A stretch of DNA of 8,489 nucleotides from a virus (lineage: Duplodnaviria; Heunggongvirae; Uroviricota; Caudoviricetes). The stretch's first letter is position 1; each line of letters opens with the position of its first letter. Positions 1 through 6,000 of this stretch are shown here, piece after piece. Made by a program: the position numbers. The stretch lies in IMG/VR virus record IMGVR_UViG_2706794493_000018; one strand, 5' to 3'.

Positions 1-3000
1 TCCGGACCTGGCTGAGTTTGTGGCACTGATTTCGAAAAGCGGAGCCAATCCATTCGGTCTGACGGTGGATGCTGTGATGGAGGAGTACCGCCGCTGGCGC
101 AATGAGTCCTGGCGATACGACGGAAGTGATAAGTACCCGTGGTCTCAGCCTGTGCTGTATCACATTTGCCTCGAGATGCGTTCAAAGGGGATTGAGCGCC
201 AGATGACCGAAGGGGAATTAAAACGGCTTGCAGAACGGCAACTGACGAAATGGGCAAAGCATGTTAGTAACGGCCTGAGCGTTCCGCCAGTCCGGCGACA
301 ACTGGCGGCCCCCAAACGCCCGTCGGGGCCAACGCCAATTGAGTTGCTGAAACAGGAATATGAACGCCGGAAAGCGGCTGGTTTTGTTTGAGTTGAGAAG
401 TGATTTTTTACCGGGAGGAAATTTATGGAGACTGTTTTTGACGCACTGAAAGCGATGGGAAAAGCCACGTCGGTATAGCTGGCTGCGCGACTTGATATCA
501 GTCGTGAAGAAGTACTGAACGAGCTGTGGGAACTGAAAAAGGCTGGCTTCGTTGATAAAAGCGTATACACCTGGCGTGTGGCTGATAACAACGTTCAGCA
601 GGAACAGCCAGCGCCAGAAGAAACCACCACGGCAACAGAAGCGAAAATCTCAGAGTGCGATTTAACCGCGACGATTGAACAACGCGGACCACAAACGGCG
701 GATGAACTGGCTACGCTGTTCGGTACAACATCCCGCAAAGTTGCTTCAACGCTGGCAATGGCAATCAGCAAAGGTCGTCTGATTCGCGTAAACCAGAACG
801 GTAAAATTCGTTACTGCATACCAGGTGATAATTTACCAGCAGAGCCGAAAGTTGAATCGGTAGCGGAAACCGATGGTAAAGCCTTTCCTCAGCCAGCCGG
901 TGTTGCGTTACCGGTACAGAAAGATGCAACACAGGAAGATATTAAAACAGAAACTGTGGCGGACATTGTGCAGTCGCTGCCATCGTTTACTGCAACGCGA
1001 GAAGATGATTTGATTTTGCCATCGCTGCATATGGCAAATCGCGAACTGCGTAGGGCGAAGAATCATGTCCAGAAGTGGGAGCGAGTCTGCGCCGCGCTGC
1101 GGGAGCTGAACAAGCACCGGGATATGGTTGCCGGGATTTGTCGGAAGTCCGGGCAATGAGCGGATGGTGCAGGCCTGAAATCATGATACTAACAATGAAG
1201 GTAAAATGCATCGGCAGTCTGATTGGTCGTAGTGAGGCGGCGGTCAGGATGAAAGCCCAGGTTAAGGGAATAAGCCTGATTCTGCGGGGTGATTTTCACC
1301 AGTCAACAAAATATCCGTAGCGCGATAACGGTCAAAAATTATGGCGCTGACACTTTTGTGCCACTGGAGATGACTGTACCTAAGTTCAGGGGAGAAGAAC
1401 ACGTCCGGTGGGATGGTCGGGCCAGATTTAAAGGGCAGGTCATGGCTCCAGCCTGTACGCTGGCAATGGAGGCTGCCTGGCGGGAAATTGATATGGGAAC
1501 CACGCCACTCAGGGATTTACTGCCGGTCCAGAGAATAAATTCCTGTTACGGTTACACCACTGTGATCTTGCAAGTGCAGGAAAGTAGGTCTACACGGTAA
1601 CGCGAGTGCGTGTAACTTTTGATGTCATTCCCGTAGAAACACCGGACAAATTTTCGCTGACAGGTCATGCAGAAGGTATAAATCTGCAGATTATGGACAA
1701 TTACGGATATCCGGCAAGAGCCGGAAAAAGCATGCCGCCTCTAATTCTCAGTGGAAGATGGACTTGATTATACTCATTGCATTGTCAGAAATAGTTATCC
1801 ATTAAAGGCTGGCTATTCCAAACAGGATGTTGATTACAAAAATGTAATCAACATGTAAGGTTTATACTCTTCAATATGCGTATAATTTTCCTTATTTTGT
1901 TGACTTTAAATAACAAGCTATGCACGAGGTAAAGTCGGATAAGTTTATCTGGATGTAATATATATTATTTGTAGTGTTTATAACTTTATTTCATGATAAC
2001 CAATAAAAGGAGTTTTTTATGAGGAACATAATGGCAGGTTTTTTAATATTCCTGTCTTCTGCTGCTTATGCTGATATCAATCTGTATGGTCCTGGTGGCC
2101 CGCATACAGCCTTGCTTGATGCAGCCAAACTTTATGCCGAAAAAACAGGTATTATAGTGAACGTTCATTACGGCCCACAGAACAAATGGAATGAAGATGC
2201 CAAAAAAAATGCAGATATCTTGTTTGGCGCATCAGAACAATCTGCTCTGGCTATCATTCGGGACCATAAAGACAGCTTCAGTGAAAAAGATATTCAGCCT
2301 CTTTATCTGCGAAAAAGTATTTTACTGGTAAAGAAAGGTAATCCTAAAAATATCCGGAGTATTGACGACCTGACCAGACCTGGGATTGGCGTAATTGTTA
2401 ATGATGGTGGTGGTACCAGTAATACATCAGGCACTGGCGTCTGGGAAGATATTGCCGGACGTAAAGGGAATATAGAAACTGTCGCCGCAATCCGAAAAAA
2501 TATTATTTTATATGCGCCCAATAGCGGAACTGCACGTAAGGCTCTTGAGAATCAGCCTGGAGCAGATGTCTGGATAACCTGGGCTGACTGGGCAGCCAGT
2601 AATCCAGAAATTGGTGATGTCGTGGAAATAGCGCCAGACTACGTGATATGGCGTGATATGAACATTACAGTACGTCAGGATGCAAATGATGAAACCCGTC
2701 GATTTGCAGAATGGCTACAAACCGATGAAGCGGCGCCTGCATTCAAAAAATATGGCTGGACCAGGAAAGGCACTTGACATCCTCGTCCTTCAGGACGTGG
2801 ATTCTTTTTCCGGATGCCGCGCCAGCGGCATGTAGGGGCAGCTCACAAAACGGAAAAAATTGTACGCTAAGCCTCGCCAGGTGAACTGAATTCATTCCGA
2901 TATGGGAATTCCCATATCGGGCGAAAACGGTTTGCTGTAACGGCAGAGTTAAGTAGGATTGCTGCGGGTGCTTGAGGCTATCTGCCTCGGGCATGAACAC

Positions 3001-6000
3001 CAACGGCAGATAGATAAAAGCCCCACCCGACTATAAATCGAAGTGAGGCCCCTATATGCTCGTCACATATAGATTGCCTCTTACGGACCGAAAGGTCAAG
3101 GAGAAGCAGGCTATGAAGCAAAGGGAGAAATCCCTCGCCACCTCTGATGTGTCAGGCATCCTCAACGCACCCGCACTTAACCCGCTTCGGCGGGTTTTTG
3201 TTTTTATTTTCAACGCGTTTGAAGTTCCGGACGGCGCCGGAATAGAATCAAAAATACTTAAGTAGCGCGCAGGGAGAAGAGGGATGGACCCCGAACAGGG
3301 GAGTGCTATTTATCTGGAAGGATTCTGTTGATGAGAATCGAAGAATTACGTGAAATTTTTAGTGAAGATGGCCTCTATACTGTGCGCGTTGAGAAGGGCG
3401 CTATTGTCAGCCACTGCCGTATTAAATGTTTACAGTCTCAACAAAGGAAGAGTGGAGCTGCGTTAATTCATTTTGTGGATGGGCTTGTGACGGATGGTTT
3501 TATTTTGCGTGCAAATGAATTTGTCACATCGTTGCCGTCTCTGAAAGAAGCTGGGATTAAGGCTGGTTTTTCTGCTTTTGAAGATTAGTGAATTCATCTA
3601 CAATTCAGCGCAGGGCTGAACCCCTGTTGAGTAACACTGTGCCACCGGAGAAAGCCGATGGCGCAAAATTCCAGACTACACAATTCTGATAATTCAGCCG
3701 TCTTTGCCAGCAGGCACGGGCGGCGTTCTCATGCATTCAAATCTGACTGGTTCCGGCACGCCCCATGCACTGAAGAACAGGCCGAATGGCTGATTCAGAA
3801 CTACCGCAGACGTGGGTATGAGTTTAGGAAAGCCCTCAGCCTCGATTATCGTCACTGGATAATCTACGTCAGGCTGCCGTACTCCGAGCGCCCACCGCGT
3901 CCGTCCCGCACATTCCAGCAACGCATCTGGAGGTAACGTGCGGGTATTACTTCGACCTGTTCCGGTACCGGAACTTGGGGTGGTGGTCCTTAAACCAGGC
4001 CGTGAATCCATGCAGGTATTCCATAACCCTCGAGTGCTTGTGGAGCCGGAGCCGAAAAGCATGCGCGGTCTGCCGTCCGGCATCGTCCCTGCCGTTCGCC
4101 AGCCGCTGGCGGAGGATAAATCATTACTGCCGTTTTTCAGCAATGAGCGTGTGATTCGTGCTGTTGGTGGCGCTGGTGCACTGTCTGACTGGCTGTTGCG
4201 TCATGTCAAATCCTGCCAGTGGCCTCATGGTGACTATCATCACAGTGAAACCGTTATTCACCGTTATGGTACCGGCGCAATGGTGTTGTGCTGGCACTGC
4301 GACAACCAGCTGCGTGACCAGACATCCGAATCACTCGAGCAACTTGCTCATCAAAACCTGTCAGCATGGATGATTGACGTCATCGGTCACGCAATAAGCG
4401 GTACGCAGGAGCGTGAATTATCTCTGGCTGAATTATCCTGGTGGGCGGTCCGCAATCAGGTGGCGGACGCGCTACCGGAAGCGGTATTACGTCGTTCGCT
4501 GGGGTTGCGTGCGGAAAAAATCCGCTCAATGTACCGTGAAAGCGACATCGTACCGGGAGAGCAGACCGCCACCATCATACTGAAGCAGCGCACAAAAAAT
4601 CTTGCGCCGCTGCCTCACGCCCACCAGCAAAACCCACCACAGGAAAAGACGGTGGTCAGCATTGCCGTTGATCCGGAGTCTCCGGAATCCTTCATGAAAC
4701 GACCTAAACGTCGCCGCTGGGTAAATGAGAAATACACACGCTGGGTAAAGACACAGCCGTGTGCGTGTTGTGGTAAGCCAGCGGACGATCCTCATCATCT
4801 GATTGGTCATGGTCAGGGCGGAATGGGAACAAAATCCCACGATATTTTCACGCTACCGCTGTGTCGGGAGCATCACAACGAGCTTCATGCGGATCCGCTG
4901 GCGTTCGAAGAAAAGCATGGTTCCCAGGTTGATTTAATTTTTCGTTTTCTTGATCACGCCTTTGCAACCGGCGTGCTCGGGTAAAAGAGGTTACTGATGC
5001 GTATAGAGTTTGTTTTGCCTTACCCGCCGACGGTGAACACCTACTGGCGACGTCGTGGCAGCACATATTTTGTATCAAAAGCCGGTGAGCGTTATCGCCG
5101 GGCTGTGGCGCTTATTGTTCGCCAGCAGCGGCTGAAATTAAGCCTGTCCGGACGGCTGGCAATAAAAATTATTGCAGAACCACCGGATAAGCGCCGCCGT
5201 GACCTGGACAACATTCTGAAAGCACCGCTGGATGCGCTGACGCATGCGGAAGTGCTCATTGATGACGAGCAGTTTGATGAAATCAATATTGTGCGCGGTC
5301 AGCCTGTGCCAGGTGGACGGCTGGGCGTGAAGATTTACGAAATCAGAGGTGGTAACGATGGCGCGTGATATCCAGATGGTTCTTGAGCGATGGGGGGCAT
5401 GGGCAGCAAATAATCATGAAGATGTAACATGGCCCTCGATAGCTGCTGGTTTTAAAGGATTAATCCCGACTAAAGTGAAATCACGTCCTAAGTGTTCTGA
5501 TGATGACGCCATGATAATTTGTGGTTGTATGGCACGATTAAACAAGAATAATCAGTATTTGCACGATTTGTTGGTGGATTATTACGTAGGTGGAATGACA
5601 TTTATGGCTCTTGCACGTAAGCATAGATGTTCTGATGGGCTTATTGGTAAAAGGCTTTATAAAGCGGAAGGTATTATTGAAGGAATGCTTATGGCTCTGA
5701 ATGTCCGGTTAGATATGGATATGCGGTAGGGATATATAGTGATGAGGGTTATGTTTTCTGTGTTTATAATTAACATGTTTATTTTTTGATGGTCATGTAT
5801 TGTGGAAGGTAGATAAAATGTTGCCTGGTGAATTGAAAATATTGATAATCAATCTTCATCATTAAATAAAAGGAGTGCTTATGTGGATTGTGTTAGTACT
5901 GTCACTGTCAACTCTCAGTTGGCATAAGGTAGTGGCTTTTTCATTGTTGACGGTGTCTGTTGTCCTGGCTGTGCTTAATGATATTATTGATTGGTCGGTG

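Follow-up and report, generated by a model that had tools for sequence, protein, structure and literature searches.

The stretch of DNA considered here, 8,489 nucleotides (nt) from the IMG/VR virus record IMGVR_UViG_2706794493_000018 and called the window below, carries at 2921–3210 what is in all probability (about 85%, in our estimate) a hok/sok type I toxin–antitoxin (TA) cassette of a PPompW-type lambdoid prophage, from which the toxin gene has been deleted. PPompW prophages are those of enterohaemorrhagic Escherichia coli (EHEC), and the cassette sits in the interval between the genes for the replication protein P, upstream, and a Q antiterminator of the PF06530 family, downstream (approximately 5349–5729, placed from relatives), with all genes on the plus strand. 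The argument is built on sequence homology, on the deletion itself, on predicted RNA folds and on the distribution of the cassette among related prophages.

A reading made earlier from the sequence alone had singled out about 500 bp of this interval and proposed a covariance-model search as a check. When the whole window was scanned, one strong Rfam match was obtained in the region, to family RF01794 (“sok”), with a score of 103.9 bits (gathering score 59) and an E-value of 2.3e-23. The match lies at 2966–3115 on the plus strand and covers model positions 1–157, the full length; Rfam families other than sok gave no match in the hok/sok region. It ends on the hok start codon (ATG at 3113), and in other loci the model matches the strand of the hok open reading frame (ORF), while the annotation of phage 933W places sokW on the strand opposite to hokW. 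The RF01794 model therefore represents the leader of the hok mRNA, to which the real Sok RNA is complementary.

The same identity emerges from comparison with relatives. A megablast search with positions 2778–3330 finds hundreds of EHEC PPompW prophages that match 100% of the query, but always in two pieces, which together span 711 bp against 553 in the window; the extra DNA is annotated as gef/hokD. Phage 933W annotates mokW, hokW and the antisense sokW at positions homologous to the window. Experiments have established hokW-sokW as a type I TA system, with release of the toxin when the prophage is induced (PMC8621323).

The extent of the deletion can be read directly from O157:H7 strain PV15-279 (locus L001). 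Positions 1–3120 of the window are 100.0% identical to L001 1224–4343 and positions 3123–3979 are identical to L001 4504–5360. The 160 nt missing in between (L001 4344–4503) comprise Hok codons 4–51, the stop codon and 12 further nt, and are replaced in the window by “AA”, so that the junction falls at 3120–3123. In PV15-279, the hokD coding sequence (L001 4336–4491) encodes a protein of 51 amino acids (aa), MKQQKAMLIALIVICLIVIVTALVTRKDLCEVRIRTGQTEVAVFTAYEPEE, which matches the NCBIfam Hok model with an E-value of 1.1e-11, under the curated cut-off of that model; the equivalent gene in related prophages matches PF01848. All that is left of it in the window is the start codon and five more nt (ATGAAGCA, 3113–3120, plus strand). 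A toxin ORF of the Hok/Gef type, which would encode about 50 aa with a membrane helix at the N-terminus, is thus absent, and since the toxin frame is reduced to this remnant, the locus is an incomplete hok/sok family member.

Every relative examined keeps the toxin gene, and related but non-identical EHEC prophages, reached via the neighbouring proteins, all have an intact hok. The distance from the context of the hok ATG to the 3′ element of the mRNA is 208–209 nt in all 27 paa-type viral contigs where it could be measured and 51 nt in the window. The hok/sok system is one already known and annotated in relatives, and the allele in the window is a private, toxin-less remnant of it.

The deletion also accounts for the lack of any credible ORF, which the sequence-only reading had pointed out: the stretch is non-coding here because a 51-codon gene present in all relatives has been lost. 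The single frame that had been listed, at 3056–3265 on the plus strand, is present and, as reported, is cut across by the terminator, its stop lying beyond it. It encodes 69 aa, has no Pfam match and is a chimera in which the mok/hok start is fused in frame to the 3′ untranslated region, that is, a by-product of the deletion. The two possible chimeric products gave no record on an exact-sequence lookup.

Apart from the toxin gene, the parts of a hok/sok locus are in place. A putative hok promoter is found at 2932–2960 on the plus strand (−35 TTGCTG, 2932–2937; 17-nt spacer; −10 TAGGAT, 2955–2960), assigned by its position relative to the start of the model and conserved with 933W and other cassettes. 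The leader that follows (2966–3115, plus strand; the RF01794 match) includes a 5′ pairing element, the Sok target, the mok start and the hok Shine-Dalgarno sequence and ATG. The Sok antisense gene, mapped from the 933W sokW misc_RNA through the alignment, occupies 3016–3064 on the minus strand and is identical in sequence to that of intact relatives. At the level of sequence, it overlaps the mok start and has both a putative promoter and a terminator hairpin. The RNA is predicted to have a single-stranded 5′ tail of about 11 nt, a G+C-rich stem-loop and a terminal UUUU (−18.7 kcal/mol, z = −4.0). Its putative promoter (3071–3099, minus strand; −35 TTGACC, 3099–3094; 17-nt spacer; −10 CAATCT, 3076–3071) was assigned by its position upstream of the mapped Sok 5′ end; it lies wholly to the left of the deletion junction and is hence intact.

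The start codon of mok, to which the mokW start maps (ATG at 3056), is held in a conserved plus-strand hairpin at 3052–3072, which is a helix of RF01794. This hairpin is the 7-bp inverted repeat CTATATG/CATATAG of the sequence-only reading, which does exist but had been placed at 3054–3074, two bases off; its arms are at 3052–3058 and 3066–3072. Taken alone, such a repeat is at chance level, and it is relevant only since it coincides with the conserved helix.

In minimum free energy (MFE) folds, the 5′ end of the mRNA, GGGUGCUUGAGG (2966–2977), pairs with CCUCAACGCACCC (3160–3172) just before the terminator. The 3′ element involved (3159–3172, plus strand) is the counterpart of the fold-back-inhibition element. 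The pairing is present in the truncated hok RNA of the window (241 nt; −93.9 kcal/mol, z = −5.7), and the same pairing occurs in the intact 399-nt hok RNA of a relative (−163.8 kcal/mol, z = −6.7). A fold-back of the 5′ end onto the 3′ end is the arrangement known for hok mRNAs from the R1 system, as summarised in PMC8621323. The long-range pairing is followed by an intrinsic terminator (3179–3210, plus strand), with the stem AACCCGC/GCGGGTT (3179–3185/3190–3196) and a UUCG loop, after which comes TTTTTGTTTTTATTTT, with a long T-run to 3210. What had been called a textbook terminator is indeed a genuine one. It is identical in PPompW-type relatives and among the best-scoring in the window, which has 18 terminator-like sites against 9.0 ± 2.8 in shuffled sequences. 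Because it stands directly after the element that pairs with the mRNA 5′ end, it is the Rho-independent terminator of the hok mRNA.

An intact PPompW cassette would be expected, by analogy, to work like hokW-sokW. A weak promoter would give rise to the 399-nt hok mRNA, which would be kept inert by the pairing of its ends. Translation of hok would depend on the overlapping mok frame, and the short antisense Sok would bind the region of the mok start and thereby block expression. In the window, the 160-bp deletion at 3120/3123 has taken away the killing arm but spared the putative hok promoter, the complete leader (including Sok target and mok-start hairpin), sok and its putative promoter, the 3′ element and the terminator. 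Two transcripts are predicted: Sok itself, about 49 nt long, on the minus strand from 3064 to 3016, and a leader RNA without toxin, about 240 nt long, on the plus strand from 2966 to about 3205. As the predicted leader keeps the whole Sok target, the two RNAs would presumably still pair and be degraded, without consequence for the cell.

The toxin-less locus cannot kill and is at most a source of orphan antitoxin RNA. Such an orphan Sok could possibly act against near-identical hok copies at other sites of the genome; several related hok loci are present in EHEC genomes (a median of two matching places in each, with a maximum of 10). Between the 933W-type Sok target and that of the window there are an indel of 21–22 nt and several changes, which makes broad cross-protection by the orphan Sok unlikely.

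Among characterised systems, the closest is hokW/mokW/sokW of phage 933W and Sp5. The leader, the mok start, the hok start, the position of the antisense sok and the 3′ element are all homologous, the loci belong to the same Rfam family and are prophage-borne, and the intact PPompW relative has a Hok of 51 aa like HokW. Besides lacking the toxin ORF, the window differs from 933W in its Sok hairpin region, which is 21–22 nt shorter, and in the Sok 5′ tail, so that cross-recognition between the two Sok systems is doubtful. The cassette of the window is in the P-to-Q region, while that of 933W is near the end of the genome; the terminator hairpin itself differs; and a palindrome found at the left edge of the cassette in the window is not present in 933W.

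The hok/sok (parB) system of plasmid R1 resembles the window in its mok-bearing leader, in an antisense Sok with a single-stranded 5′ tail and a terminator hairpin and in the 5′–3′ fold-back pairing, and it resembles the intact relatives in an mRNA of about 400 nt. Unlike R1, the copy in the window is prophage-borne and chromosomal, and with the toxin deleted there is no post-segregational killing. In 933W and in the window cassette, in contrast to R1, mok is in frame with hok. The R1 system is summarised in PMC8621323.

Like the window, the K-12 loci hokA, hokB, hokC, hokD/relF and hokE have lost toxin function but kept parts of the regulatory RNA apparatus; the intact relative of the window locus is itself named “hokD” by RefSeq. 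The K-12 loci are reportedly inactivated by insertion sequences, point mutations or rearrangements (Pedersen and Gerdes 1999), whereas in the window there is a short internal deletion whose limits nearly coincide with those of the coding region and which spares sok and the two ends of the mRNA.

At the left edge of the cassette is the perfect 24-bp palindrome CCGATATGGGAATTCCCATATCGG (2897–2920), which a repeat scan confirmed as originally reported. It is the sole palindrome of at least 18 bp in the window, and the chance expectation for one of this length is about 8489 × 4^-12 = 5e-4 per random 8.5 kb. Homology with the 933W cassette starts at 2924, three bases past it, and the palindrome is outside the hok RNA. 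At least three unrelated contexts, with 133 matches between them in viral contigs, have it 53–71 nt before the start of the hok mRNA: it lies downstream of the adhesin gene paa in the window, of an antirepressor gene with C4/isrK RNAs (loci L024 and L050), and of a DUF551 gene (L160 and L171). Since it is shared across these unrelated upstream contexts, the palindrome is the left edge of a variant of the hok cassette. A role as part of the paa moron was rejected, as the same palindrome precedes hok where paa is absent (L024/L050, L160/L171), and so was a role as an intrinsic terminator, since neither strand has a U-run after it. In different cassettes, the breakpoints of the mosaic lie at the palindrome or next to it, and in several hok lineages its outer left arm has decayed without compensation (TCCGTATGGG, TTGATATGGG).

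The prophage of the antirepressor type (L024) also carries RalA, the antitoxin RNA of RalR, and two C4/isrK sets (216–394, 3946–4147 and 7208–7406), so that several RNA-based control systems are found within one stretch of 9 kb.

Exact-match scans for the palindrome gave 17 matches in genomes of many phyla and 52 in viral contigs. Thirteen of the 17 genome matches are inside a conserved gene of about 260 codons, in which the palindrome encodes (S/T/A)DMGIPIS. The product has a KilA-N domain (E = 6.7e-26), and its C-terminal half matches the PADLOC model for the phage-defence protein BstA (E = 2.5e-20). The palindrome of the window is identical to the commonest form of the one conserved in these BstA-like KilA-N genes. 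The exact 24-mer also occurs in frame (DMGIPISE) in unrelated ORFs, one set of about 2,000–2,400 aa in Azospirillum and a viral contig (L012/L067) and another of 305 aa (L056), and it is found in short or non-coding contexts as well (L006, L010, L025/L068, L046, L065).

Read on the plus strand, 2896–2940 of the window gives S-DMGIPIS-GENGLL-stop, in register with the “DMGIPISGKNGLIQ” subfamily of the BstA-like proteins. The seven residues after the palindrome score 21 against GKNGLIQ, a value reached by 12 of 20,000 shuffles (p ≈ 6e-4), and the DNA extension beyond the palindrome scores 12, reached by none of 300. Judged on this resemblance, the palindrome and the next 21 nt are most likely the fossil of a BstA-like KilA-N defence gene with an internal palindrome. 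The simplest account would be that the cassette once recombined into such a gene, of which about 45–70 nt would have been kept and would now overlap the hok promoter. A degenerate-pattern search of IMG/VR for further members of the “SGKNGL” subfamily found only the one already known. A relic on the minus strand (FSPDMGIPISE*IQ) was rejected in favour of the plus-strand reading, as its in-register test was not significant (4,567 of 20,000 shuffles). The palindrome, the inverted repeat and the terminator, which had been taken together as one unit, thereby come apart into three things: a probable fossil at the cassette edge, the hairpin of the mok start and Sok target, and the hok terminator.

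The BstA-like family that bears the palindrome ranges from cyanobacteria and spirochaetes to E. coli (L072–L151, L003–L019). In E. coli ML35, the gene is directly downstream of a prophage gene for a LexA-family repressor, and bstA is likewise just downstream of the prophage repressor (PMC8585504). Within these genes, the palindrome is 20–24 bp long and is kept by compensatory changes. Besides GATATGGGAATTCCCATATC (DMGIPIS), compensated variants include GATATCGGAATTCCGATATC (DIGIPIS), with a synonymous change of the proline codon from CCC to CCG, GATACCGGAATTCCGGTATC (DTGIPVS), GATGCGGGAATTCCCGCATC (DAGIPAS) and CCGAAACGCGTATACGCGTTTCGG (ETRIRVS); coupled amino-acid changes (M/I, T/V, A/A) thus occur as well as synonymous ones. 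In an unbiased sample of homologues collected with degenerate peptide patterns (29 distinct sequences), six of the 10 base pairs show double changes, and 89.7% of cells pair, against 29–48% when the partner column is slid. The observed covariation was reached by none of 500 shuffles. Such a pattern suggests that a hairpin of DNA or RNA is under selection inside a BstA-like defence gene. No description of an internal palindrome in BstA-like genes was found in the searchable literature.

The published BstA systems have a cognate DNA immunity element, aba, inside their own locus (PMC8585504). The genes with the palindrome are like BstA (Owen et al. 2021) in their KilA-N N-terminus, their BstA C-terminal half, their place next to a repressor and the presence of a short DNA element inside the defence gene. 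However, the palindrome is not the published aba: that of phage BTP1 is a non-palindromic 63-bp element at the 5′ end of bstA, to which the palindrome bears no resemblance (PMC8585504), with terminal CCCGCC direct repeats, whereas the palindrome is about 70 codons into the gene. The window itself has neither a BstA-like ORF with a KilA-N and a BstA C-terminal domain, only the fossil of about 15 codons (the palindrome and some seven recognisable codons), nor a 63-bp aba that spans a gene start between CCCGCC repeats. Candidate roles for the palindrome within the gene would be a cognate self-immunity site, like aba, or a binding site for the gene’s own KilA-N domain.

Several other explanations have been weighed against that of a toxin-less hok/sok cassette. 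The sequence-only reading had likened the region to the nin region of lambda, with the tR2–tR4 terminators, and such a cluster would halt early-right transcription for as long as RNA polymerase has not been modified by N or an equivalent antiterminator. Like tR2–tR4, the terminator is intrinsic, lies on the plus strand between Q and the replication genes and faces the early-right transcript; this agreement is one of position and strand only. There are two plus-strand terminator-like hairpins, at 2784–2797 and 3179–3196, and any early-right transcript must presumably pass both. However, the hairpin at 2784 belongs to the paa moron, and the terminator at 3179–3210 is part of a different transcription unit, that of hok: in PPompW-type relatives it stands immediately after the 3′ pairing element and closes the hok transcript. 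This unit is an inserted moron cassette that has a putative promoter of its own, and hok units are found at other genome positions in other phages; in 933W, the hok leader and 3′ element are located away from the nin region and on the opposite strand of that genome. No likeness to tR2–tR4 turned up, though no dedicated comparison was made. A nin-type cluster is therefore a quite improbable explanation; the position between P and Q stands, but the terminator is the 3′ end of the hok mRNA, and early-right read-through of it and of the paa hairpin is a side-effect of moron cassettes.

The alternative suggestion of a small regulatory RNA ending at 3210 was right in that a small RNA gene is present, but this is the antisense Sok, on the minus strand at about 3016–3064. 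The only RNA predicted to end near 3205 is the truncated, toxin-less hok leader transcript (2966–3205). It could in principle have a role of its own, for example as a Sok sponge or as a trans-acting small RNA: it has a promoter-like region and a terminator, keeps the whole Sok target and, at about 240 nt, is predicted to be highly structured (the −93.9 kcal/mol and z of −5.7 given above). Such an RNA, however, exists only through a deletion seen in this one sequence, shows no sign of selection and matches no Rfam family but sok, and we regard this role as very improbable.

It would be unlikely, too, that the deletion is not biological but an artefact of assembly, cloning or sequencing, and that the source genome has an ordinary intact hok/sok. 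In favour of an artefact, the exact junction was not found in GTDB representatives (one genome per species), IMG/VR or JGI metagenomes, nor ever as one piece by megablast among 5,426 complete genomes of E. coli; on both sides the sequence is otherwise the same as in relatives; and the 2-nt filler is unusual for a simple replication-slippage deletion. On the other side, the sequence has no signs of misassembly (no Ns and no repeat across the junction), and the whole window is a mosaic not present in the complete-genome set and must therefore come from an unsampled genome. Chromosomal hok loci are, moreover, reported to be often inactivated (Pedersen and Gerdes 1999).

Some of these observations weigh against the toxin-less cassette as reconstructed here: the deletion allele is in no other public sequence searched, which leaves room for an artefact of assembly or cloning, and, given its filler “AA”, no single clean event leads to it from the reference. 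To these must be added that a consensus promoter scan brought neither the hok nor the sok promoter to threshold, both having been placed by position alone; that the fossil at the cassette edge amounts to about 15 codons; and that, for the minus-strand reading of the palindrome (the only one that the Pfam scan covered), Pfam gave no KilA-N and tblastn against phages returned PPompW copies only. Either the deletion is a private mutation of very recent date, or the source assembly produced it as an artefact.

A further possibility is that the palindrome at the edge of the toxin-less cassette is still a working DNA site, either a decoy or self-immunity site for BstA-like proteins, similar to aba, or an operator on the hok promoter. 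The compensatory changes, synonymous ones included, that keep it in BstA-like genes would fit this, as would the immunity element in the locus of BstA systems (PMC8585504). Orphan copies are intact upstream of hok in several prophage lineages, and between L024 and L050, the flanks differ by about 14%, while the palindrome differs at 0 of 24 positions. However, the only aba mapped, that of BTP1, is of a different kind and at the gene’s 5′ end; in hok contexts the outer left arm decays uncompensated (TCCGTATGGG, TTGATATGGG); the spacing to the hok start varies by 18 nt between lineages; and hok cassettes of the 933W and L161 types do without the palindrome. A working site is on balance doubtful. 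A broader proposal, that the palindrome is a functional element born in BstA-like KilA-N genes and that its orphan copies at hok edges serve as decoys for prophages without the defence gene, would be something of a long shot on the present comparisons.

Upstream of the toxin-less hok/sok cassette, paa (2019–2777, plus strand; annotated through its relative PV15-279) is preceded at 1325–1858 (plus strand) by a fimbrial-protein pseudogene with a frameshift and an internal stop, recognised by identity to the same strain. Just 3′ of the paa stop codon (2777) is a terminator-like hairpin (2779–2802, plus strand; stem 2784–2797, then TGGATTCTTT), which is outside the hok cassette. The spacer between paa and hok also contains a perfect hairpin with a 7-bp stem and a 4-nt loop (ATGCCGC-GCCA-GCGGCAT, 2814–2831), located by the repeat scan, which resembles the REP elements of E. 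coli.

Directly 3′ of the cassette, an ORF of 86 aa (3328–3588, plus strand; MRIEELREIFSEDGLY...) has no match in Pfam, NCBIfam or PADLOC. A homologue is directly 3′ of hok in the unrelated antirepressor/C4 context as well (L024 5422–5709), and the ORF may travel with the hok cassette. A second perfect palindrome, of 16 bp (GTTCCGGTACCGGAAC, 3959–3974), is near the start of a DUF968 gene (3938–4984). Downstream of the Q gene are two moron-like genes (5875–6699 and 7320–8033, plus strand), whose products are a CAAX/Rce1-like intramembrane protease (PF02517) and an AraC-family regulator. The closest matches of the latter are YdeO and GadX, both under the NCBIfam cut-offs, and the exact protein is found very widely, in 10,180 blocks of the assembly collection. 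A cluster of tRNA genes follows (Met-CAT, Arg-TCG and Arg-TCT; 8062–8311, plus strand), and after it the first half of the small RNA STnc100 (8388–8489, plus strand; 50.8 bits in Rfam), cut by the end of the window. In Stx-type phages, such an order is typical downstream of Q.

An apparently gene-free but structure-rich stretch of 500 bp is thus explained by a known TA cassette without its toxin, with a small RNA on the strand that the sequence-only reading had left unconsidered. A toxin-less locus that retains sok could matter locally, in that the orphan Sok might buffer a near-identical hok copy. The sole unexpected result is the palindrome in the parent family of BstA-like genes, outside this window. 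If it is indeed a functional element, it would be one maintained across bacterial phyla by compensatory substitutions that even alter the encoded amino acids, and decoy copies would let a prophage without the defence gene replicate in cells armed with a BstA-like gene. As an immunity element has been mapped for one BstA variant only, the palindrome offers a testable candidate for others.

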